A DNA stretch of 62,766 nt, filler included, from Bonamia ostreae (taxonomy: Eukaryota): the NCBI GenBank assembly GCA_040357525.1. It is 24 parts of 24 records of this genome, joined end to end, with 100 filler letters (N's around TTAATTAATTAA, not from the genome) between each part and the next. Parts side by side here need not be neighbours in the genome. Positions count along the whole stretch, not along the records: positions 15,813 to 18,340 come from JBDODL010000791.1; 23 more parts are not named here. One strand, 5' to 3'. The stretch's first letter is position 1. Each line of letters opens with the position of its first letter. The notes under the pieces are model-generated. The model saw nothing but the letters and a program-made list of their open reading frames with translations, had not been told where the DNA came from and searched no databases. The position numbers and the translations under genes are program-made. This document shows, piece after piece, positions 11,451 to 44,721 of this stretch.

Positions 11451-12110
11451 TTACAAGGCGTTGTTTGAATTCATCGGGTGGAACTGATTGGGACCTGGCG
11501 GTGCTTGTCTCATCTGCACGTTGACGTTTGAATTCGACTGTGGATAATTTGGATTTGCAAACTGACGCCGTCCCATCTGCTGTTGCCCCATCTGCTGTTG
11601 TCCTGCTGGCGCGAACTGATAAGCAGCTTCGTTGGAATAATTTTGCGCCATCGCTTGTGGATTGTAAGGTGGTCTGTACATCTGATTAACGCCGAGAGGA
11701 GGCTGTCGATTCTGTTGAACATTCGGATTGAAAGGTTGAATTGGCTGAGAAGGACCGTATTTTTGCGTGTTTAGCGGGTTGTTTTGAGGGTAACCAGAAG
11801 GATATTTTTGTTTTTTGTTCTTCATGTGCGGCTGCGCGTTCGGTTGTGGGAATGGCTGATTGTTGGCGACCGGATATCCTTGAGTCGGCGGGAAAGCCCC
11901 GTGTTGTTGGTTGTAGTCTTGATGGGGAGGAGGAATGTATCCTTGCGTATAAGCAGGATTGTAGCCAGGAGGATATTGCTGGTTGTGCATCTGTTGCTTC
12001 ATCATCTTTTTCTGCATTTTCATCTGCTTCTTCTGTTGCTTCTTCAACTCTTTCTTGTCGTAATAACCCCCCGTCAGTTCATTGACTATATGTTTTTTTA
12101 ACTTGCCCAT
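11451..12110 (-). CDS. Gln/Pro/Asn-rich low-complexity protein
   Basis: 219-aa intronless ATG ORF, K/Q/M-rich N-terminus then YPP/QQ repeats. Confidence 0.7.
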   Translation of the reverse strand: MGKLKKHIVNELTGGYYDKKELKKQQKKQMKMQKKMMKQQMHNQQYPPGYNPAYTQGYIPPPHQDYNQQHGAFPPTQGYPVANNQPFPQPNAQPHMKNKKQKYPSGYPQNNPLNTQKYGPSQPIQPFNPNVQQNRQPPLGVNQMYRPPYNPQAMAQNYSNEAAYQFAPAGQQQMGQQQMGRRQFANPNYPQSNSNVNVQMRQAPPGPNQFHPMNSNNAL

Positions 12111-15812: not shown

Positions 15813-16828
15813 ATCTTTTTTACTAGTTTACATTGTTTTTTATAATCTCTGGCAATTTTTATTGTTTTAATGTATTGCATTTGTTTTTTCAATTTATTTC
15901 TTTTTTTAATTTGAATATCTATGTTTCTATTCCACCAAACATTACCGATATATTTTTGATTAAATGACATGTTTATTTTTTTACAGTTTTTATCTAATGC
16001 TTTTTTATAAATGTTCCTAAAATGATTATAAATTTCATTTATGTTTTCTTTTTTACATGTGTTTAGAAATTCAACTAAATTTAATTCAAGTTCTTTATTA
16101 AAATTTTCTATGTTTAGACTTTTCCAATTGTACATTTGCTTTTTTTTAGTTTTGGACTTTGTTTCAATGCTAATGTCAAATTTAACAGGCAAATGATCAC
16201 TACCAACATTAATTAATGTACAAATATTATCAATTTTGTTCTCAAAATTCTTTTTTGTTATAACTAAATCCACATTAGATTTTTCTTTGAAATTATTTAT
16301 TAATGTATATTGGATTTTACCATGTATTTGTAACTTTTTTTCTACTATCAAATTATGTAATTTAATACCGTTCAAGTTATTTATATTATTCGACCAAATT
16401 TTATTTTTTGAATTAAAATCACCGCAAATGACACTTTTATTATCAAATTTTATGTCATCATATAATTCTTTAAAATTTATATTTTTAGACGGGATAACGT
16501 ATATATTAAATAATCTTAAACAATTATTTTTATTATCATAAATTTTTATTCCTTGGATTTCATATCCACAGTTATCATCTAATTTTAGATGTTTTAGATT
16601 TATTACATCAAATTTTATTCTATTTTTTATATAGATTACAAGACCACCACCTTTTTTATTATGTGATCTACATAATTCTATACAGTTGAACAACTTTATA
16701 TTAATTATTTTTTTTGTCCATACTTCTTGGACACATATTATATCAGGTTGATTGTTTTTTATCAAATTTTTTATTTCGTTTATATTTTTATTTAATGACC
16801 TTGCATTTAATGAAATAATTCTTAACAT
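15813..16828 (-). CDS. Retrotransposon ORF2, apurinic-like endonuclease domain (truncated)
   Basis: ISLNARSL, DIICVQEVW, GGGLVIYIK, ICGDFNS, VDLVIT, SDHLPV, followed by linker with WWN motif typical of LINE ORF2. Confidence 0.92.
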
Positions 16829-18273
16829 TTTGTCATATTATTACTATCATTCATTTTCTTATTTATTGCTAGTAAAATTTTATCAAAATAATTTTGAAGT
16901 TTTACTTCTACAATATTCATTATTTTATTAATTAATTGTTCTTCATTTATAATATTCGAGTTTATTTTGTTACTGATATTTTTGTTTTCGTTATTATAAT
17001 TATTTATAATTTTTTCTTTATTTTTGTTATTTATAATTTTATTCTCTTTTGCGATTGGAATATTAATACTTTTAGATTTAACTTTGTTTTCTTCTGTGGT
17101 TTTTTCGTTTTTACTTTTCTTTTTATATAATCTTTTAGCTTTTTTTAATACATCTTCATCAAATGTAAACAATTTATCATTATTTTTATCTTCTAATAAC
17201 ATCCACCGATTTTTTGAAATTATTTTTAATTGTTTATCTTTACATTGAAATGAATTTGATTTATGATTTTTTGAACAAAAACGACATACTACACTTGCAT
17301 TGATACAAATCTCTGCAGTGTGTCCATATTTTTGACACCTAAAACATTGTGTTATGTTTTTATTTATATATCTAGATACTTTGAAATCTCTGCGCGCAAC
17401 AGTAAATTTTTTATTATTAATAAGGTGTTCATACATATGTTGATCTTTTAAATTAACAAAGCCAGTACTAAACATTTCATTATTTTTTAATGGTTTGAAT
17501 ACAATGTTTGTAAATCTTATATTCTCACTTTCAAAATACCTTTTTAAGTCATCAACTGTTATATACTTTGGTATATGGTGAATTACTATTTTATATAAGC
17601 TATGGGTATTATCAATTATTTCAGCCGACTCACCAAATTTTTTAGGGTTTACATTAAATTGAGCCTTTTTTTTGTCTTCATAACTTTTAAAAAATACTCT
17701 TATGTCGCCATATGGCAACAAGTCGCATTCAATAGCTTCTTTAAAATTTTCGGCAACAATCATTTTCAATTTAAAATTGTTCAAGTATATTTTTTTATTT
17801 TCAATATTTTTGATTAATAACGAATGAAAATTTTTATTATCAAATTGTGAATGCAACTCATCACTTTTATAGAACTTTCGTTTTTTATTTAACGTATGAA
17901 AATTTTTATTAGATATTGAAACATGGTCTTCAGTAGTTATTTGAGCTGGTATTAACTCAGCAAACGTTTTAGACTTTATTTGTGGCTCTACTCTATATCC
18001 ATTTTCTATGAGCCATTTCGAGTATTTTTCAAAGCGTTTTTGGCTCATATTAATTTTTTCTTCAGTTATTGGCAGTGTATTATTATTTTCGGTCGTAGAG
18101 CTGTCAAAAAACAGTTTTTTGTTCGAAACTGAAATTCCCGTTTTTTTAGACTTTTTTGATATAATATTTTTTTTCAGCGGTTTTTCAGTTGTGCTTTTCA
18201 GCCTAGAATCGGACAGAGGGGGGGTGTCCTTTGTGTTCTTATTGCTTTCCGAAGTGTTTCCACTTGTGTTCAT
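16822..18273 (-). CDS. Retrotransposon ORF1, gag-like nucleic-acid-binding protein
   Basis: 483 aa; RRM-like KIVIHHIPKYITVDDLKRYF; zinc knuckle CFRCQKYGHTAEIC (CX2CX4HX4C) followed by CRFCSKNH. Confidence 0.9.
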   Translation of the reverse strand: MNTSGNTSESNKNTKDTPPLSDSRLKSTTEKPLKKNIISKKSKKTGISVSNKKLFFDSSTTENNNTLPITEEKINMSQKRFEKYSKWLIENGYRVEPQIKSKTFAELIPAQITTEDHVSISNKNFHTLNKKRKFYKSDELHSQFDNKNFHSLLIKNIENKKIYLNNFKLKMIVAENFKEAIECDLLPYGDIRVFFKSYEDKKKAQFNVNPKKFGESAEIIDNTHSLYKIVIHHIPKYITVDDLKRYFESENIRFTNIVFKPLKNNEMFSTGFVNLKDQHMYEHLINNKKFTVARRDFKVSRYINKNITQCFRCQKYGHTAEICINASVVCRFCSKNHKSNSFQCKDKQLKIISKNRWMLLEDKNNDKLFTFDEDVLKKAKRLYKKKSKNEKTTEENKVKSKSINIPIAKENKIINNKNKEKIINNYNNENKNISNKINSNIINEEQLINKIMNIVEVKLQNYFDKILLAINKKMNDSNNMTKC

Positions 18274-18292
18274 TTGCGTTTTTTTATTATAT

Positions 18293-18340
18293 TTAGGGTT
18301 AGGGTTAGGGTTTTTTTTTAGGGTTAGGGTTAGGGTTAGG
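18293..18340 (+). repeat. Telomeric repeat tract (TTAGGG)n, one unit with T9 instead of T2
   Basis: (TTAGGG)3-TTTTTTTTTAGGG-(TTAGGG)2-TTAGG running to the contig end. Confidence 0.9.
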
Positions 18341-18440: not shown

Positions 18441-20968
18441 TTACTTATTCGAATATCTGAAATTGCTTTTGGTGAATGGTAACATCCCATCAAAAGTACT
18501 TTGCAGTTTTTGTGGGACAATATTTTTTGTTTTGTTTTTTCATCGTCGCATTCAACGCTAACGATGGAACAACCCAATCTTATCCCAAACCGGATAAAAC
18601 TCGCGTAGAGATTTTTGTTGTCTGGGAAATATCCTCCCTTTGACTTTGGTAACAATGTGAATATCACTGGTAACTCAGTCGCATTCCAAATATTGTAAAG
18701 TTGTTTAGCGATAAAAATGTCGGAAAAGTTTTTGAGCATATCTACTCTCATTTCTACCGCGTTGTGACCGGTTGTCATTTTTGCAACTTGGTCTAAATTC
18801 TTAATTTTTGTTTTGAATTTTTACCGATTTTTGTTTTGAAATATTTTGTAATTAAAACGGAATATTCTGGAAGGGTAAGACATGCCATGAAAGATTGCCT
18901 TGACAAATATTCTTTAAGGTTAATTTTGGGTTGGAAAATTTTTTTGCAAAATAGAGCAAAATTTTTCTTATCTTTAGCCAAATCTTCAGTTACATAAAAT
19001 TCATATTTGGAAAGTTTTTTATATAACACTTTTCTGTTAAAATAGACATCTCTTTTCAAAATTTAAAGCAAAATTTAGAAAATTTTTAAAAAACAGCATT
19101 TTTCAATTTTATATCATTTGGAAAAAGTTAAATTTTTTTAAAAACAAAAAATCGCAATTCGGCAAACTGATTCTTTTGTTCTTTTCTTTTTGAAAAAGCG
19201 TTTCCTTTATTTTTTCAATATCTCTCACGACAAAAACGACGCAGCAATTTTTTACCATTTTTGAAAAAAGGGCAGTTTCAACAATACCTCCTCCACAAGA
19301 AATAATGGTGTTCCCCTTTTTTTCTAAAATGGCTGAGAAAGTTTCAATTTCCATTTTTCGAAATTTGGCCCAGCCGTTTTTGCGAATAAATTTATTTAAT
19401 GACAAATTAAGCACTTTTTCCATTTGTGCGTCAATATCAAAAAAGTTTGAATTTAGTTTTTCTGCTGCGTATTTTGACAATGTTGTTTTTCCGGCAGCTC
19501 TAAATATATTTTTGTTGTTATCGAAAAAACACTTTGATCAAAATATTGTTACCAAAAAGCACTTTGATCAAAATATTGTTATCGAAAAAATACTTTAATC
19601 AAAATATTGTTATCAAAAAAGCACTTTAATCAAAATATTGTTATCAAAAAAGCACTTTAATCAAAATATTGTTATCAAAAAATCACTTTGATCAAAATAT
19701 TGTTACCAAAAAAACACTTTGATCAAAATATTGTTATCGAAAAAACACTTTGATCAAAATATTGTCATCAAAAAAATACTTTAATCAAAATATTGTTATC
19801 GAAAAAGTACTTTAATCAAAATATTGTTATCGAAAAAATACTTTAATTAAAATATTGATATCTAAAAATTACTTTAATCAAAACAAAACCTCATTCCAAT
19901 TACAATAATTTTGTTACAATATTCAAAATTAAATTCTGATTTTTTATTAATCGCCATTTTCGCAGCTCTGAAATTATGTTTTAAATCAAAAGTTTTTTCT
20001 ATTTGTCTGAAAAATGACGGAAAAGTTTTTTCGACGCAATATTTATCAGAAATGATAACGTTCTCGGTTATTAAACCAAGCAAAGAAAAACTCATCGCTA
20101 AACGGTGATCGTTTTTGCAATCTATTACAGTCCCTTTCAATCTTTTTAATTTAAAAGTCGGTTTTCAATTAAACATATTTTTCGTATTCAAATTTTTCGT
20201 ATTCAATTTAAACAAATTGCAATTAAACAAATTTATTCAATTAAAAAAATGTTCACAAAATTAACGGTTTACCGCCTTTTATAATAAGTCCAGTCTTAGT
20301 TTCTAAAGCTTTGACGCCCATTTTATTTAAATTTGTTACAACTGATTCGATTCTATTGCTTTCTTTCAATCTTTGGTTCTTCAAATTAAATTGTTACAAA
20401 AATAATCGTCCCAATAAATAACTTGAATATTGAAAATCTCAGTTGTTCCGTTAGTGACAGCGGCAACCATCGACATCGCCATAAAAGAGTCGGTGCAATT
20501 TGACATATCAATTTTTTCGAGCGATTTTAGGATTTCTTGATTTCCACGTTTTTCTAGAACCAAATTTTCTTCGTCTCTGTAAACTTTGATCCCCATTTTT
20601 TGTAACAAAGATACGAAAATTGCTTCTCCTTGTAATTTTGTGTTCGGGTACTTCATAACAACGATTTTCTGATTTGTTATCGCGGCTGCAGCTAAAAAGT
20701 ACTTTTTGTTTAAAAATGTTACTGCTGCTGACGAAGCGTCTGGTTCGATGTGTATATCAGACGGGTTTCGGTAGCAACCCTTTTCTACAACAAACTTTTA
20801 ATTTTTTAGGAATAAACGATGGATTTCTTTATTTGTTTAACTTTTGCTCCGAATTGATGCATTAATTCTATCGTCATTGTTACATAGCTCTCAGAAGTTA
20901 TTTTTGTTGCCGTTTTTTCTTTATCTCCTTCCTATTTTAATTCATCGGTAACAATTATAAAAGTTTTT
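18441..20968 (-). CDS. ARO1: Pentafunctional AROM polypeptide, internal part (EPSP synthase, shikimate kinase, type I dehydroquinase)
   Basis: IEPDASSA, LQGEAIF, DMSNCTDSF, NQRLKESNRI, NDHRLAMSFS, CVEKTFPSFF; IGMR|AAGKTT P-loop, ISCGGGIVE; AVEMRVDML, PVIFTL. Confidence 0.92.
19515..19885. repeat. Intronic minisatellite, ~30-31-nt unit, about 11-12 copies
   Basis: AAAAA(G/C/T)ACTTT(G/A)ATCAAAATATTGTTATC tandem units inside AROM intron 19500-19889. Confidence 0.9.
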
Positions 20969-23187: not shown

Positions 23188-23945
23188 CTTAAATTGTTTA
23201 GATAAATTTTAGTCAAAATTATAAATGTTTTAATTTTGAGAATTAATAATTTTGTATAAATTTGTTTTGTTTGGATTTTAAGCTAAATGGCAAAGTTGAG
23301 ATCAAAAGTTGAGCCATTTCAACTTTCTAATCGAAACTTTGTCGATTTGCGAAAATTGACAAAACACATTTGCAAAAATGGTTAAATAATTTACGTTGTA
23401 TGTTCGGAAAGTAAAATTTTGTAAATAATTAGTATTAAAAAGCAGTTTTTCAATTTTGAAGGAAATATTTTGTAAATCTGTAAACAACAAAAATGTCAAT
23501 TTTCCGGTAAAATTATTTTATTAAAAATCGGTTGTTTGCGCCTTAAATAAAGACGAATTAATAGAGCTTATTCCAGCACTTCAAGGAAGAGAAGANNNNN
23601 NNNNNNNNNNNNNNNNNNNNNNNNNNNNNNNNNNNNNNNTTAATTAATTAANNNNNNNNNNNNNNNNNNNNNNNNNNNNNNNNNNNNNNNNNNNNAGAAC
23701 AACGACATAACAAAAACGAACAAATAATCAATCTTCTGCACCCACCGAAACACACAATCCCACAAAAAGCGGCTTTACCTATCCCAACAACACAAAGTCC
23801 CAAATTTTTACACAAATGAAGCTACAACCTGATAGCAACTTAGCTAAATCTAATCTCGAAATGGTTAAACTTTTAAAACGACATAACTTCGAAAACGAAG
23901 CGCCGTCAAACCACCAAAAAATGAATAGGAAATTGAGAGATTTTA

Positions 23946-26140
23946 TTACACAAAATATTTTATTGAATAAAAAATGAAGCTGCAAAAACCGATTCGCTTT
24001 CTTTCAGCTTCCTCTTCTCTCTGAACACGTTCCCGTTCGAGACGCTCTTTTTCCTCTTTTTCGCGGCGGATTTCTTCGAGTCGCATTTCCTCCTCGCGTT
24101 TTTTGCGCTCTTCTTCTGCCAAAACAGCTCTTTCCTTCTCTTCTTTCTCGCGTTTCGCGATAAGAGCCAATCGCTCCTTCTCGCGCTTCGCGCGTTCCGC
24201 TCTTTCCCTCTCCTCGCGTTCTTCGCGGATCTTCTCTCGGAACGTCCCGATGACTCGGGAAAACGCCGAGCTGAGGATATAAGGAACCTCCACGACCTTC
24301 TTCAAAACGCGTTCCATTATCATCCGCCTCGCGCGAACATGAACCGTGACGAGCTACGTTTATCTAAGCAAACCCCCCGCAGCTTGTTGAATCGCTGCGC
24401 GACGAAGTACGATTTGATTCTCTGCACTTGTTCTTTGGTCAGATTCCCCTTCTGCTCCTTGATCGTCTGCACGAAGGGGACTCCCGGCTTGAAGAAGATT
24501 TTGGTCAACCCGAATTCGTAGTTGGTCGAGCTGAAGCCGAACCCGACGAGAACGGCTTTCCAGAACTCGTTTCTTTTCAGCCCTTCCAGAATCGGGTGCG
24601 AGACAAGTTTCCTGTAGTTGCGCTCCAGATCCTCGTACGAGATCCTCGTCGGATAGCCCTTCTTCACCACCTTCAGCGCCGGGATGATGCCCGCGCAGCG
24701 GAGTTGCTGCACGACGTGGGGTTTTTCCCAGACTCGGCTCGACTTCGGTCACGGAAAAAACCTTTTCGGTGTTGGGGTTCATGCAGCGGATGAAGTGCTG
24801 CGTCGAGTCGTTCAGCGTCGCGACCAGCTTCTCGAGCGACCCGACGAAGGTTTTGCCCACGTTTTTGCGAACGCCTTTTCTGCGCTTCGCGCCCGCCTCG
24901 AAGATGGAGCTCAAGAGCTTTAGTGGTTGTGCACAAAACCTCGGACTTGCTGCTTGCAAACATGGCGGAGGTCTCGTCGGAGATGAGATCTTTGTTTTTG
25001 AGCAGGAACTCGTTGCAGTTGTAGACCACGTCCTCCGCGAAGTGCACCACCAAAAAGCCGTTGAACTTCTCCTTCGGCAGCAGCGACTTCCGCAGTTCCT
25101 TGTTCATCTTGACCCGCTTCAGCTTCTTGTTTCGGCCGTGGCCCGAGAACACGTTCGAAACCAGGATGTCCGGAGTGCCCTTCGGCATGTTGCAGGCGGA
25201 TTCGAGCAGCTCGAAGACGCCGCTCTTGGCGTTTCCGAACAGGTCCACGATCAAGTCGTTGTTCGGGATGTCCAGGGGGATCCAGTAGACGCCCTCCGAG
25301 ATGTACTCCTTCTGCTCGGCGATTATCAGGCTCTCCGAGAAGAGCTGATGCAAGCGCTCGTTCGCGTAGTTTATGCAGAACTGCTCGAAGGAGNNNNNNN
25401 NNNTCGAGAATGCCGATGTGCCGCAAATCGTGGCTCGCGTCTTTGACGAGGAAGAAGCGGTTGATGCTCGTGAACAGCCAGTCGAAAAGCGCCGAGAAAA
25501 GCGACTTCGCGATCGAGTCTTTGTTCACGAGCGCTTCGTCGTAAGAGAGAGGCGAGTTGATCTCTTCGCGCATGACTTTGATCTTCCTCGTGGTCAATCG
25601 GTTCCGGAGCGCTTCTTTGGCGACTCCGATCAAATCCGCCGCGGTTTCGAGCGCGGCGTCGCTCTTCGGACTGATCTGCGAGTAGCCCTTTTTGTCTTCC
25701 TCGAAGAAGACGTTCCCGATGTGGAGGATGGCGGCGATGTGTTCGATCATGCGGTCCCGTAGTTGTTCGGAGAGGTGGAGGGCTTTCATCGCGGCGCAGA
25801 ACTTGTCGAAGTGCTTCTTCTCGTCCCTGTTTTCGATGGCGACGTTTTGCGCGTGTTCTGTGGTGGCGGCCAAGTAATGGAAGTTTTTCGGGTCGTCGAG
25901 TCGGATGCGTTTGCTGGAGCTGTGGAAGACTTGGTAGAAAATGTGGAAGTTGCGTTCTTTCGGTTCGTGGAACACTACGCGGGATTTTTCGAGGAGGTAC
26001 GACTCGAATTTGCAGCCTTGGACGAAAAGGGAATCTTTCGGTTTCGAGCGGTCGAATTTGTCGAAAACGATTTTTGTGAATTTTCCGAATCGACTCGAAT
26101 TGTTGTTTCGCACTGTCTTTGCGTTTCCGAAGGATTCCTT
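23946..26140 (-). CDS. Myosin heavy chain, motor domain plus ER/K-rich neck (partial)
   Basis: GNAKTVRNNNSSRFGK, YLLEKSRVV, ERNFHIFYQ, FEQFCINYANE, HFAEDVVY, HFIRCMNPN, QQLRCAG, GYPTR, FGLTKIFF; 19-nt intron 24743-24761. Confidence 0.95.
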
Positions 26141-26320
26141 TATTGGAAATTAGAATTGCGATTTTTATAAAAATAGTGGTGGACGCGTTGTTTTAGACGG
26201 AAAAAGATAAAAATAAATTTNNNNNNNNNNNNNNNNNNNNNNNNNNNNNNNNNNNNNNNNNNNNTTAATTAATTAANNNNNNNNNNNNNNNNNNNNNNNN
26301 NNNNNNNNNNNNNNNNNNNN

Positions 26321-39311: not shown

Positions 39312-39523
39312 NNNNNNNNNNNNNNNNNNNNNNNNNNNNNNNNNNNNNNNNNNNNTTAATTAATTAANNNNNNNNNNNNNNNNNNNNNNNNNNNNNNNNN
39401 NNNNNNNNNNNTTTTGTTGATCAAAAACAGACAATATTTTATTGATCAAAACAGACAATATTTTACGGTGTCGGACAAATTTCCTTCAAAAACTATTTTT
39501 CTAAAAAATATTTTACTAAAAAA

Positions 39524-40904
39524 GCTCGGTCGACAAAGCCAAATCGCCTTCCGGCAAAATAGTCGCACTAAAGAGACTGCTCCTTGAAAAAGAAAGCAGT
39601 TTCACGGGCGTTTTTTAAACATTAAACAGTTCCCCGTCACCGCGTTGCGGGAAATCAAGATTCTGTCCTGTCTCGATCACCGCAACATCGTGAAGCTTTT
39701 AGACGTGGTCACTTGTCGCGACGAAGGTTTTGACAATAACGAAAGAAAATTCTGTCAACGAGGTGTTCCTAGTTTTGGAATATGCGGACCACGACTTGGC
39801 GGGGTTGATGGCGAACCCTGAAATCAAATTCGAAGAAAAAAATATAAAATTTTACATGAAAAACCTTTTCGAAGCGTTGTACTATTTGCAAGAAAAGTGC
39901 AAAGTGCTCCATCGCGACATCAAAAGCTCCAATATATTGGTCGGCAACGACGATTCGGTAAAGTTGGGCGATTTCGGGTTGGCTCGTCTTTTGCGTTGTG
40001 ACGGCCGCAAGCACTATACGAAGACGGTCGTCACTCTGTGGTACCGCGCGCCAGAACTACTTTTCGGGGAAAGTTGTTATGACGGCGCAGTCGATATATG
40101 GTCAGCCGGTTGCGTTTTGGCGGAAATGTACCTCAGGAAGCCCCTTTTCCCCGGTAACACAGAAGCTGAGCAAATCGACCGCATTTGCAGTGTTGTGGGG
40201 ACTCCATCCAAAGATAGCTATCCAGAAGGACTAAATTTTGACGTTCGTTGCAGCAAAAAGTATCCTCGAGATTTTTCGCGGATGAAAATGTTTTTGTTGC
40301 AACTCTAACCAATTTCCATTTTCTAAAAAGCTTTAGTTATAATCGGGTTTTAGAATTGCGATATTTTAAAATGGTGTTGTTAAATGTTAGTTTTTAGATA
40401 TAAGTTAAATGCTGATCCAAAATAAATGTTTTTGCGTAAATCGATTTTGCAATAATTCCAAATGTCTTACACAAAAGAGTTAAAGACAAATCCCCGTTGG
40501 CCTTTGATTTGTTGACAAAAATTCTTGTTCTCGACCCCAAAAAACGGCTTACAGCCGAAAAAATATTGGACCACGATTACTTTCACATTGGCGACAAAGC
40601 TGAGCCACTTGATTTGTTTTTTTCGTTTAGTTTAAGGCGACACATATTGCCAAGTCACGAATTCGAATCTCAAAAGAGAAGAAGAGAGCGCAGAGAAAAA
40701 ACAAGGAACAAGAAAGAAAAGTCGAAAAACATTGAACCCAAAGAAGATTTGTTCGACGGCGAAGAACTTAAAAAGCTCAAAGAAGAAAGGTTGGAAAGGG
40801 AAAATGTGCAAATCGAATCGGATAGTTTATCCGAATTTAGCTCGAATGATGAGAATGTTCATTCTGGCAGTGAACCGGGAGAAATAGTTGTTCAAAGTGA
40901 TTAA
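39524..40904 (+). CDS. Cyclin-dependent kinase, CDK9/CDK12 (CTD kinase)-like, 5'-truncated
   Basis: VALKR, FPVTALREIKIL, EYADHDLAGL, LHRDIKSSNIL, GDFGLAR, VVTLWYRAPELL, DIWSAGC. Confidence 0.9.
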
Positions 40905-42065
40905 ATTTTTCAAAATTTTTACGATTTTGATAAAATCCGAAAATGATTAATCTTCGAAATAACTAGTAATACAAAATGGAAAGATTTAATCAAATTATTT
41001 GTATTAATGTTGACCATTTGGCAGGAACAGTCATTTAACTGGTAATTATTTACAAAATTTAAAAAATATTTTGTGTTTAGATTTGTAAATCTCGTAGTCG
41101 CTTCATTAAAACTAGAAATTGCTTTTTAAGGAATAATTTTTTAAAACTTTTACGACAATATTAAGTTTTTCATGATTTACATTTAAGTTTTTCGAAATAT
41201 AATTTTTCAAAAATATTTCTTTTTTTATGCCATGTTTCTTGTGCAAAAACACAGTAAATCATTATTATTTACAAATTGTTTAAATTCATTGGTATTTTTA
41301 AAAGACTCCTTGAGTTCCAAGACATTGCGTTCAATGTGAAGAAAGTATCTTGGACAAGTCATAGTTTTGAAATGAGTTTTTGATAGTTTTAATTGCTATC
41401 TGTTTAACTCTATTCGAAATTAGAGTCATTATTTTCTCGGTAATCCTCTTTTCCAAAGACTCTAAATCGAGGTTTGGATAAGCATTAAATTTTTCAATTT
41501 TGCGTTTTACATTATGTTTAAACTTTTCGTCTTCATTTTCAATGACTCTGCGCGGATAAATTGCTGACTTGGCAAGTATCTCATCATCATCGCAGGAGGA
41601 CTTATTTACAGAGACATTTTTATTTTAACGATTTTTAGTTTTAAATTTTCTTGTCTTTCGCCAAAGTTTCTTTGTCAAAATTTTCAAATTTATTAACATC
41701 TCGTACTTAAAAGCCCATTATTTTTTTGTAAAATTAAATTGAATAAAAGAATTAACATTTTAATACATTTAATGTTAATTTTTCAGTGCAGTTTTTAGAT
41801 TCGTGCTGTTTAGAGCAAAATATACACTTTATGCCATTGAAACAAATTTTGGACGTGTGCCCAAATTTTTTACATTTGTAACATTGTACTATATTTTGGT
41901 TGACAAAACGGGAAATTTTAAAACNNNNNNNNNNNNNNNNNNNNNNNNNNNNNNNNNNNNNNNNNNNNTTAATTAATTAANNNNNNNNNNNNNNNNNNNN
42001 NNNNNNNNNNNNNNNNNNNNNNNNTTAAAATTTGCTAAAATTTTACAATGAAATTTTGGTATTAC

Positions 42066-44480
42066 CATTCGATCGCTAAATCCTCTCCTCTGAACTTTCT
42101 GCATGAAGACTTTCGTCACGCCCCTGACCCCGCGCAAGGCCATCCTGGCGAGCAAGTTCGTGCTCACCTTGCGCAGAAACGCGTCGTCCTGCGATCCCAA
42201 CCGCTGCAACATCTCTTCCTGCTCCTCGCTTCCCCGTCCGACCACGCGCACGCGCAAAACCGGCGTCTCCGCGTTGTCGCTATTGAAGACGCAGTTCAGA
42301 TCGCCTTCGAACTCCGCGTTGATGCGGTCGGCGATCTCCTGGTTCGATATCCCCTTCGTCTGTTTCTTCTTTTTGTCCAACGTCACGCGGAGCACCCAGT
42401 CGCTCAGCTCCTCCGGGTCCGCTGCCTCGTCGTCCCCGAACACCGGCAAATCGCTGTACGCTTGCAGGAACTCCGCGTCCTCTTCGACGATCGTGGGCGC
42501 GCCGACCGGGTCGTAGTAGACCTCCGCGCTAGCCGTGATGTCTCTGAGCGTGGCGTGCTCCAGTTTGTTCAACAGTTCGGTCGCTCTGGCCGCGTCATGC
42601 GACAGCTCCGGCCGCAGGTGCACGGTCATCCCCGGCGTGCGGATTTGCTTCGATACGTTGATCAGTTCGCGCAGCCGCGGGACACCGAGCGTGACGTTCT
42701 TCGCGGACACGCCGGCGTAGTGGAAGGTGTTCAGAGTCATCTGAGTCGCCGGCTCGCCGATCGACTGCGCCGCGAGAGTGCCGATCATCTCGCCGGGCTC
42801 CGCGAGACTGGCTCTGAAGCGGCCCAGGATCTCGTCGGCCAGCCAGGAAAACGCCTGCGTGGTCAATCTGCGGCGCGCCACGAGCAGCTTGGAGCCGAGG
42901 GAGGAGCGCAGCTGCATGCGGAAAAGGATGGTGGCGTTCTCGCGGGCTTCGGCTCGGAGGCGGCCGGGGCCGCGTACAGCGACGCATTGCTCGCAGAGCT
43001 GCTGCACGCGGCGGATGACTTCTCGCGGGTCGAGATCGCTGCGCGTGCGGGGCGAAATCGAGAAGATTTTCTGAGAGTTTGAAACGAGTCTTTCGACGTT
43101 GACCGGAAGGTACACGCTTCGCGAGTAATCATTCTTTTTATTGTTAAATTGGCAATTTTAATGCAATTTTTATAATTTTGATTTTTTTTAAATTTTACTG
43201 AAACGTTTTTAATATTTTTTTGACGTTTTATAACATTTTTTTCGATTTTTAACAAACGTTTTTATTATTTTTTGACGTTTTATATCATTTTTTTCGATTT
43301 TTAACAAACGTTTTTATTGTTTTTTGACGTTTTTATGACATTTTTTTAAATTTTAACAAACGTTTTTAATATTTTTTTGACGTTTTATATCATTTTTTCA
43401 ATTTTTAACAAACGTTTTTAATATTTTTTTTGACGTTTTATATCATTTTTTCGATTTTTAACAAACGTTTTTAATATTTTTTTTGACGTTTTATATCATT
43501 TTTTACATTAAAACACGATATCGAACTTTTAACATTTTATTCGCTGAGCTATAAAATCTGAATGAACATTTTAGTCGTAATATCAAATAAATTTTTGTAA
43601 ATATAAAGTTTAGCAATTGTGGTTACCAGAAAAGCAATGTTTTCGCGATAAAACAATCTGTCTTTCCGGAGTTGCGCTGCTTCGAATTCCAATAATTCGT
43701 CGTCTTCTGCGTTTTGGCTAATCGCTTCGAAGACTTCGCTTTGCACCGCGGCGCGCAGATCGCTCTTGTTCCAAACATACGTTTTCTCGAATTCTGTCTT
43801 GTTCATCCAGACACTTTCTATCACTTGTTGTTCCACATGTGCCCCATCAATGCCGTCTTCCCCATAAAGATACTTTCCATTTAAATTTTTTTAGATTTTC
43901 AAAATGGAATTTTAAAAATTTGCAATCCGAAAATTTGTAAACTTTTTAAACTAAAATTGCTATAAAACCTGTAAAATGTCGCCCAACGAATTTCTAACAG
44001 TTCCGTCATATTGAATCATCAAGTGCTCCATTGCCTTCACAAGTCTTCTTTGAATGTATCCGGTTTCGGCGGTTTTTACCGCTGTGTCCACCAACCCTTC
44101 TCTTCCCCCCATCGCATGGAAAAACATTTCTTGTGGGGTCAGTCCCTTTGAAAAATTTGATTTAAAATGGCCACTTTTCAAATTTAGTTTTTAGTTGTTC
44201 TACGAAATGACCTCTAGATAAGAATTTGCGACGAACCCTCGGCTTTCGGGGCCAAGATCGTCTTTTTTGAAATGTGGCAGCGTCCGATCTTTGAATCCGT
44301 ACGGAATCCGCTTTCCTTGAACGTTCTGCTGGCCAACGCAAGCGATGATCTGGCAGATATTGATAATGTTCCCTTTTGAACCCGCGTCTACCATTTGTTT
44401 GATATTGTTTTCCCGCAGCAAAGATTGCTGCACTGCTTTCCCGGCGTTTTCTGTCGCGGAATTTAATGCGTTGTTTACCT
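42066..44480 (-). CDS. RPB1: RNA polymerase II largest subunit, internal part
   Basis: [88 protein letters not shown]. Confidence 0.97.
43200..43505. repeat. Intronic minisatellite, ~52-nt unit, about 6 copies
   Basis: TTTTAACAAACGTTTTTAATATTTTTTTGACGTTTTATATCATTTTTTCGA repeated within RPB1 intron 43134-43626. Confidence 0.88.
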
Positions 44481-44721
44481 TTTAATGCGCACAATTTATG
44501 TTACATCGATTCAAAATTTTTGTTATTGCGTNNNNNNNNNNNNNNNNNNNNNNNNNNNNNNNNNNNNNNNNNNNNTTAATTAATTAANNNNNNNNNNNNN
44601 NNNNNNNNNNNNNNNNNNNNNNNNNNNNNNNTATTAACGAACAATATTTACAATAATATTCTTTCAAATTATTTTATTTGATGAGATTTATTTTTTAGTT
44701 AAATTTGGATAACAATAAAAG

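Follow-up and report, generated by a model that had tools for sequence, protein, structure and literature searches.

A contig of the Bonamia ostreae genome assembly GCA_040357525.1 carries, on its minus strand, a non-LTR retrotransposon (one without long terminal repeats) of the AP-endonuclease (APE) type. It is a long interspersed nuclear element (LINE) with two open reading frames (ORFs), both intact, and it belongs to a new family. The contig fills positions 15813-18340 of the stretch of DNA that was analysed, hereafter the window, which comprises 62,766 bases in 24 contigs, ordered by size from 2,539 down to 2,502 nucleotides (nt) and joined by N44-TTAATTAATTAA-N44 spacers. The whole contig is 2,528 nt long and has a GC content of 23.3%, the window overall having 32.7%. 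At one edge of the contig the 5' end of the element abuts a tract of TTAGGG repeats, and it is safely described as a LINE family that is new but of a known kind, seen a single time at a telomere-type tract. We somewhat favour the view that this is a genuine copy of a protist LINE placed in a telomeric tract by target-primed reverse transcription (TPRT) from the G-rich strand. The wider proposal is made tentatively, namely that the copy stands for an independent, APE-bearing and TTAGGG-specific LINE lineage in Rhizaria (ascetosporean parasites) that is primed on the G strand, persists beside telomerase and leaves poly(A)-only scars.

Structure of the element and its 5' junction

The telomere-type tract was read directly from the plus strand as (TTAGGG)3 T7 (TTAGGG)3 TTAGG (18293..18340), with the G-rich strand running 5' to 3' toward the contig end. 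Read along the minus strand, the order is CCTAA(CCCTAA)3-A7-(CCCTAA)3, a 19-nt leader, ORF1, a 7-nt overlap and ORF2. Six of the nine TTAGGG hexamers in the 62.8-kb window fall within 18293-18340, which is the sole site with adjacent units. An earlier prediction made from this DNA, here called the original prediction, described a (TTAGGG)n tract running to the contig end; the tract is indeed there, but it measures only 48 nt and is interrupted by T7. These seven extra T, corresponding to A7 on the sense strand of the element, are located exactly between two repeat units (18311..18317, plus strand, direct reading).

An AT-rich leader of 19 nt separates the last CCCTAA unit from the ATG of ORF1 (18274..18292, minus strand, direct reading), which confirms the distance predicted between the repeats and an ORF1 start at 18273. 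There is no subtelomeric or unique DNA between the 5' end of the element and the repeats, and repeats seated directly on the element in this manner are predicted by insertion into the tract. ORF1 aligns with the Bonamia protein P0001 from residue 1. This indicates that the ATG at 18273 is the real start of the family and that the 5' end of the element is complete, even though the repeats are only 19 nt upstream. The sense strand of the element is the C-rich strand, with the 5' end toward the repeats and the contig end. The polarity predicted, that of the insect TRAS elements, was thereby upheld by direct reading and by the accessible part of PMC7265360. It is the arrangement expected if the 3'-OH of the G strand primed reverse transcription, and with one copy an agreement in orientation with TRAS has a chance expectation of 50%. 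The single 5' junction seen follows a whole CCCTAA unit, and the contig holds no 3' junction. Rfam returned no match at E ≤ 1, and hence no HDV-like ribozyme at the 5' end, and the fold of the 5' 200 nt was not unusual (z -0.69).

ORF1 spans 483 amino acids (aa) from ATG to TAA without an internal stop (16822..18273, minus strand) and is a non-LTR ORF1 of the RNA recognition motif (RRM) plus CCHC type. At the contig's own composition, in which a stop is expected at about 1 codon in 10, the chance of an open frame of this size is ~7e-23. Searched against Pfam, ORF1 gave no family above cut-off. An AlphaFold model was confident only for aa ~148-301, the predicted local distance difference test score (pLDDT) being 51 overall and 60-88 in the RRM part. 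Comparison of this model by VIA-align revealed tandem RRM-like domains at aa 148-305 (17359..17832, minus strand). Residues 223-305 matched the single RRM of 7nto_A with Z 10.6 and a root-mean-square deviation of 2.2 over 77 aligned residues, and residues 148-305 matched tandem-RRM chains with Z 9.2-9.7, reaching Z 9.7 with 147 aligned for 5ca5_B. Two CCHC zinc knuckles were located by regular expression (17242..17346, minus strand), the first at aa 310-323 (CX2CX4HX4C) and the second at aa 330-344 (CX2CX3HX6C). A third knuckle, present in the relatives P0002-P0004, has been lost from the window ORF1 through a 20-column gap. With a tandem RRM fold and two CCHC motifs, ORF1 has the nucleic-acid-binding make-up by which a LINE ORF1 is recognised. 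The term "gag-like" used for it in the original prediction holds in this non-LTR sense only, and not in the sense of a Pfam family.

Among 8,000 scored candidates only four matched ORF1 at E ≤ 1e-3. The best was Bonamia ostreae MHBO_003622 (48% identity over 63% of the query, E 8.8e-78), and the others were ENA and MERC sequences with identities of 42-45%. The ESM Atlas yielded only clusters from arthropods and rotifers, together with a single "Orf1 RNA-binding" cluster, at 0.90-0.93; these are leads and not evidence.

ORF2 starts within the last codons of ORF1, at an ATG at 16828, producing a 7-nt ORF1/ORF2 overlap that reads AUGUUAA (16822..16828, minus strand, direct reading); its frame opens just 3 codons before this ATG. 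From there it remains open for 338 aa up to the contig edge at 15813, for which the chance, again at the contig's own composition, is ~3e-16. The uninterrupted ORF1 and the APE-bearing ORF2 that had been predicted were thus both recovered, as open frames of 483 and 338 aa. The Pfam families matched by ORF2 are Exo_endo_phos_2 (E 6.5e-14; 52.2 bits against a cut-off of 27.4) and Exo_endo_phos (E 1.1e-10). The APE domain occupies aa 1-~235 of ORF2 (16124..16828, minus strand) as judged from Pfam, a structural model and Foldseek. The model had a pLDDT of 77, and its Foldseek matches included the L1 endonuclease (EN) and ORF2p at E ~1e-12 (best 1.2e-12), the TRAS1 EN at 3.3e-11 with TMt 0.76, and the R1Bm EN at 2.4e-9. 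In an alignment of 11 APE sequences the window APE keeps all 15 invariant and all 9 nearly invariant columns. Pfam, fold and conserved columns thus agree on an N-terminal APE with its catalytic residues in ORF2, as expected of an APE-type LINE. The APE is followed by a helical linker with a conserved WWN motif (aa ~236-338; 15813..16123, minus strand; alignment and model) that is cut by the contig end. Relatives P0010, P0014 and P0016 (30-32% identity) carry both APE and reverse transcriptase (RT). A tblastn search with the APE and RT relatives P0010, P0016, P0011 and P0014 detected no RT in any part of the window.

An exhaustive search with the APE returned 3,235 matches at E ≤ 1e-3 and only 4 at E ≤ 1e-30, the best being 37% identical. 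The named matches were pseudoscorpion proteins with 26-27% identity, and of ten relatives looked up four bore names, namely three pseudoscorpion hypotheticals and one generic endonuclease/exonuclease/phosphatase (EEP) label, as against none of a further ten. A near-length search gave 6 matches, and a search of the PDB with the single APE sequence gave chance-level matches only (E at least 0.088). Judging from these sequence searches, the family is rare in public data and has no close animal member.

In order to place the element, a tight APE profile was built from the window APE and its 4 closest relatives (5 sequences). It recovered five L1 EN sequences at 1.4e-13 to 1.9e-11, and the TRAS1 and R1Bm EN were absent among its 18 matches at E ≤ 1. 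A wider profile of APE and RT recovered L1 ORF2p at 2.4e-75, L1 EN at 2e-23 and TRAS1 EN at 2.8e-10. Fold comparison does not discriminate between the EN of L1, TRAS1 and R1Bm, which all rank closely. As far as a placement made from the APE only can tell, nothing ties the element specifically to the R1 clade to which TRAS and SART belong.

Source organism and support in sequencing runs

The element comes from an AT-rich protist, most probably a parasite of ascetosporean or haplosporidian-like kind, and not from a mollusc host. Whether it came from parasite or host had been left unsettled in the original prediction. The question is now largely settled in favour of an AT-rich protist by the ORF1 match, the lack of a close animal relative, the GC content at third codon positions (GC3), the distribution among sequencing runs, a relic of the family that is linked to a kinase gene and an arom-type shikimate gene on the neighbouring contig, the last two described below. 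GC3 is 0.18 and 0.22 in the two ORFs of the element, compared to 0.29-0.79 in the 35 other stop-free frames of at least 150 aa in the window, and asparagine, lysine and isoleucine (N+K+I) make up 39-46% of the encoded residues.

Sampled words of the contig were compared with sequencing runs, of which those discussed individually are labelled X1-X3, X5 and X12. Ten runs hold the contig wholly or partly, three of them, from two studies, at 96-97% of sampled words. From many runs that bear the same species label the contig's words are almost wholly absent. For X12, one run of this kind (organism A; 1.38 billion letters), 2 of 9,211,280 raw reads aligned, neither of them at 99% or more. A contig assembled from X2 is identical to 17255-18280 and extends for another 50 letters. 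Together with the word content of 96-97% in two studies, this X2 contig indicates that the junction is not confined to one assembly.

Pieces in the read alignment were mostly short, 90-95% alike and derived from low-complexity stretches. One such stretch, AAT-rich and in the C-terminal part of ORF1 (17003-17087), reached a summed word depth of 291 in X1 and 623 in X2; the pieces there are short and 90-95% alike, and these depths are not evidence of copy number. X5, guessed to be an RNA run, gave 5 pieces at 99% or more, with exact pieces over both ORFs, and none of the listed runs that hold the contig is recorded as RNA. A further X5 contig, 920 nt long and at a depth of 137, matches just the knuckle region (17255-17290) with 3 differences in 36 nt, which suggests a more abundant related subfamily in the X5 sample.

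Weighing the readings

The mechanism that we propose would start with TPRT from a 3'-OH on the G-rich strand, supplied either by an APE nick or by the chromosome end itself. Poly(A) would pair with the TT of the repeat, and the cDNA, being the antisense strand, would prolong the G strand outward before the complete 5' end is joined to C-strand repeats. The RRMs and CCHC knuckles of ORF1 would coat the element RNA. ORF2 would be translated by termination-reinitiation at AUGUUAA, a coupling proposed by analogy with SART1, in which the stop of ORF1 and the start of ORF2 reportedly overlap. Transcription would begin in repeats or in another copy lying upstream, or else at an internal promoter, as implied by the very short leader. 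The T7/A7 run may be the scar of abortive poly(A)-templated priming or else a TnAGn-type telomerase variant. A run of A7 between whole CCCTAA units and on the same strand is what an abortive poly(A)-primed event would leave: aborted poly(A)-templated extension followed by re-extension by telomerase would yield ...TTAGGG-T7-TTAGGG... on the G strand. TnAGn repeats occur in Plasmodiophora, and telomeres of Rhizaria outside Bigelowiella and Plasmodiophora are undescribed according to the available portion of a 2026 paper (PMC13746701).

Several points weigh against a genuine protist LINE copy set in a telomeric tract by TPRT. The case is built on n = 1 junction with 48 nt of repeat, and a short telomeric sequence at an interstitial site could account for the tract in place of a chromosome end. 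The T7 run is compatible with a TnAGn telomerase variant of the kind found in Plasmodiophora (PMC13746701, same portion). The contig ends 338 aa into ORF2, before the RT and the 3' end of the element, and the reading is limited further in that the element is probably active only to the extent that open frames indicate activity. As for the organism, no other long frame in the window is as rich in AT as the element, which makes a third organism possible, and P0001 was taken from a parasite assembly that had been decontaminated but might have the same contaminant in it. The repeat letters 18281-18340 were masked in the read alignment, so that support for the junction is indirect, and one of the runs X1-X3 may be the source sample. 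Finally, the one further vestige of the family in the window, a relic of a related ORF1, occupies a non-telomeric site without repeats, where the 3' end of a CDK-type kinase gene encoded on the opposite strand is ~400 nt away.

This relic (41331-41922, minus strand) is found at the end of contig 39412-41924 and consists of knuckles at 41755-41922 and a C-terminal helix at 41331-41624. Its CCHC knuckles, two or three in number (Pfam zf-CCHC, E 2.9e-4), are followed by a stop and then by a C-terminal-helix-like frame. Identity is 56% to the window ORF1 and 60-67% to P0002-P0004. The relic is of a different subfamily and has no ORF2, an absence that simple 5' truncation does not explain. The CDK-like kinase gene (39588-40904, plus strand) is made up of overlapping frames at 39588-39821 and 39703-40308 and a later one at 40440-40904, a layout that suggests short introns. 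None of its best matches exceeds 53% identity, and they are spread across various protists and algae, those in molluscs being 43-45% identical.

Beyond the single copy, it is possible that the family is a dedicated TTAGGG-specific one, TRAS-like and directed by its EN but of independent origin, most of whose copies would be found in (TTAGGG)n, sharing one register and one orientation, and would coexist with telomerase; we entertain this without leaning to it. It would account for a complete 5' end on CCCTAA units with TRAS polarity, and for A7 between whole units, which resembles a second priming event on the same strand and in the same register. In a genome of ~33% GC, AT-rich sites would far outnumber telomeric ones, making a random telomeric landing unlikely a priori, and a leader of 19 nt is like that of site-specific elements which rely on target-derived transcription. 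Dedication to telomeres is opposed by the fact that one junction was drawn from a very large scan, in which one-off events are expected, and that neither a 3' junction nor a second copy is at hand. The non-telomeric relic also speaks against it, as do the failure of the tight APE profile to reach the TRAS1 and R1Bm EN at E ≤ 1 and the lack of any telomere-binding (Myb-like) domain detected by Pfam in the available 338 aa of ORF2. Scans with an ORF1 profile confirmed none of 596 pattern matches in metagenome contigs, 126 in prokaryote genome contigs and 78 in viral contigs. The 5-sequence APE profile located 16 metagenome loci (22-43% identity), and 0/16 had runs of the TTAGGG, TTAGG, TTTAGGG or TTGGGG type; this counts against a dedicated family as far as it goes, the loci being too distant to bear on the family itself. 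No literature linking Ascetosporea with telomeric retrotransposons was found, although supplements may list repeat families, and "telomer" has 0 occurrences in the text available of PMC11069148 and PMC10245619.

It is also conceivable, if doubtful, that the family is an ordinary dispersed LINE without specificity. One copy of it would have landed inside or alongside a telomere or a TTAGGG tract at an interstitial site, or would have been captured independently of its EN at an uncapped end. Transposons are tolerated in subtelomeres and build up there. The relic beside the kinase gene fits such dispersal, as do an APE whose nearest neighbour by profile is the non-specific L1 EN and the more abundant related variants in the runs, exemplified by the 920-nt X5 contig at depth 137. 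LINEs are moreover numerous in related mikrocytid genomes, with 1730 and 1148 given in the part of PMC10245619 that is available. Dispersal, however, would leave the exact 5' abutment, the right polarity and the A7 scar all to coincidence.

An artefact, either a chimeric join of short reads or a break near the element that was healed by telomerase, is quite improbable. The assembly is very fragmented, as the 24 contigs of ~2.5 kb in the window illustrate, the repeat tract is short and at a contig end, and its letters were masked when reads were aligned. The contig is nevertheless present at 96-97% of sampled words in three runs from two studies, the X2 contig crosses the 5' end of ORF1 without differences and runs on for 50 letters, and it would take a coincidence for healing to have occurred precisely 19 nt ahead of a conserved start codon. 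Bivalve telomeres consist of TTAGGG. Least credible of all is an element of an animal host, a mollusc with such telomeres, contaminating the parasite assembly: these telomeres and a composition unlike that of the other contigs would suit it, but the element is far more AT-rich than those contigs and not less, no mollusc relative occurs among the matches, it is nearly missing from many runs that bear the same species label (2 of 9.2 million raw reads in X12), and a relic of the family is linked to a protist kinase gene.

Some neighbouring contigs were noted in passing. GC content varies from 23% to 51% between contigs of the window, so that nothing about the genome follows from their adjacency, and the DNA may derive from more than one organism. 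Contigs 23696-26220 and 42025-44531 have 45-51% GC with GC3 up to 0.79, the rest being at ~30% GC, and may represent highly expressed genes or another organism; on one of these two a myosin-motor-like frame was recognised in the translation by eye. A 219-aa ORF at 11451-12110 (minus strand), on a contig of 40% GC, is rich in Q, P and N, of low complexity and prion-like in composition. The minus strand of contig 18441-20968, which adjoins that of the element in the window, encodes a type I dehydroquinase domain together with domains of shikimate kinase and EPSP synthase. They make up an arom-type multifunctional shikimate gene, broken into several frames by introns or errors. Such a gene is not known from animals. 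For comparison, the B. ostreae assembly is listed with 12.2 Mb in 9,705 scaffolds, an N50 of 1.4 kb and 33.3% GC, and that of M. mackini with 32.7% GC, in the accessible part of PMC11069148.

Comparison with known systems

Whatever its specificity, the element gives a first sequence-level hint of TTAGGG-type chromosome ends in an AT-rich parasite lineage. If it is telomere-specific, it would allow the sequence and architecture of telomeres to be viewed directly for the first time in this group of parasites, as seen against the available portion of PMC13746701. The family has intact ORFs that could serve as markers and relatives in marine environmental assemblies, and it could help to part parasite from host DNA in data from infected tissue.

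Insertion into TTAGGG-type telomeric repeats of a microbial eukaryote or pathogen is a trait that the element would have in common with MoTeR, FoTeR and Cnl1, for which TPRT is presumed (PMC12857005, in part). These fungal elements of the CRE-like clade have a single ORF with RT and a C-terminal restriction-enzyme-like (REL) endonuclease, and lack APE and ORF1, as the same part of PMC12857005 describes them. Membership of the window element in this group was rejected, as it has an ORF1 and an N-terminal APE. So far as that source in its accessible part goes, TTAGGG has been targeted only by REL-type fungal elements, and a telomere-specific element of the present kind would be the first of the APE type to be TTAGGG-specific and a new combination in Rhizaria.

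The Drosophila elements HeT-A, TART and TAHRE likewise have a distal 5' end and are transcribed inward, and priming at the 3'-OH of a chromosome end would give the same polarity. HeT-A has no ORF2. Telomere replacement of the HeT-A/TART type was rejected for the window element since TTAGGG units lie distal to it, whereas the Drosophila elements replace telomerase repeats. Six and a fraction such units are distal to its 5' end, and with telomerase-type repeats in this position there is no evidence for the suggestion in the original prediction that the element helps to maintain telomeres.

The EN of human LINE-1 ORF2p is the best match of the window APE both by profile and by Foldseek, at an identity of just ~20%. 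L1 is not site-specific. The two also differ in ORF1, which is of the RRM plus CCHC type in the window element and of the coiled-coil/RRM/C-terminal domain (CTD) type in L1.

The closest parallel in organisation is offered by TRAS1 and SART1 of Bombyx mori, which are alike in having two ORFs and an APE at the N-terminus of ORF2, and which are seated inside telomerase-type repeats without replacing them, as the window element probably is. The sense strand of TRAS runs along the C-rich strand as in the window element, and the window APE superposes on the TRAS1 EN. TRAS is inserted in the CCTAA strand with a first nick at TT^AGG, according to the part of PMC7265360 that is available, and the TRAS1 EN cuts T^A on the G strand, according to that of PMC2868851. 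TRAS and SART are insect elements of the R1 clade that target TTAGG, whereas the window element is found at TTAGGG in a rhizarian-like protist, with its specificity proposed from one junction. If that specificity is real, it would be a case of convergence on the strategy of TRAS, arrived at anew in another supergroup of eukaryotes and directed at the canonical TTAGGG repeat.

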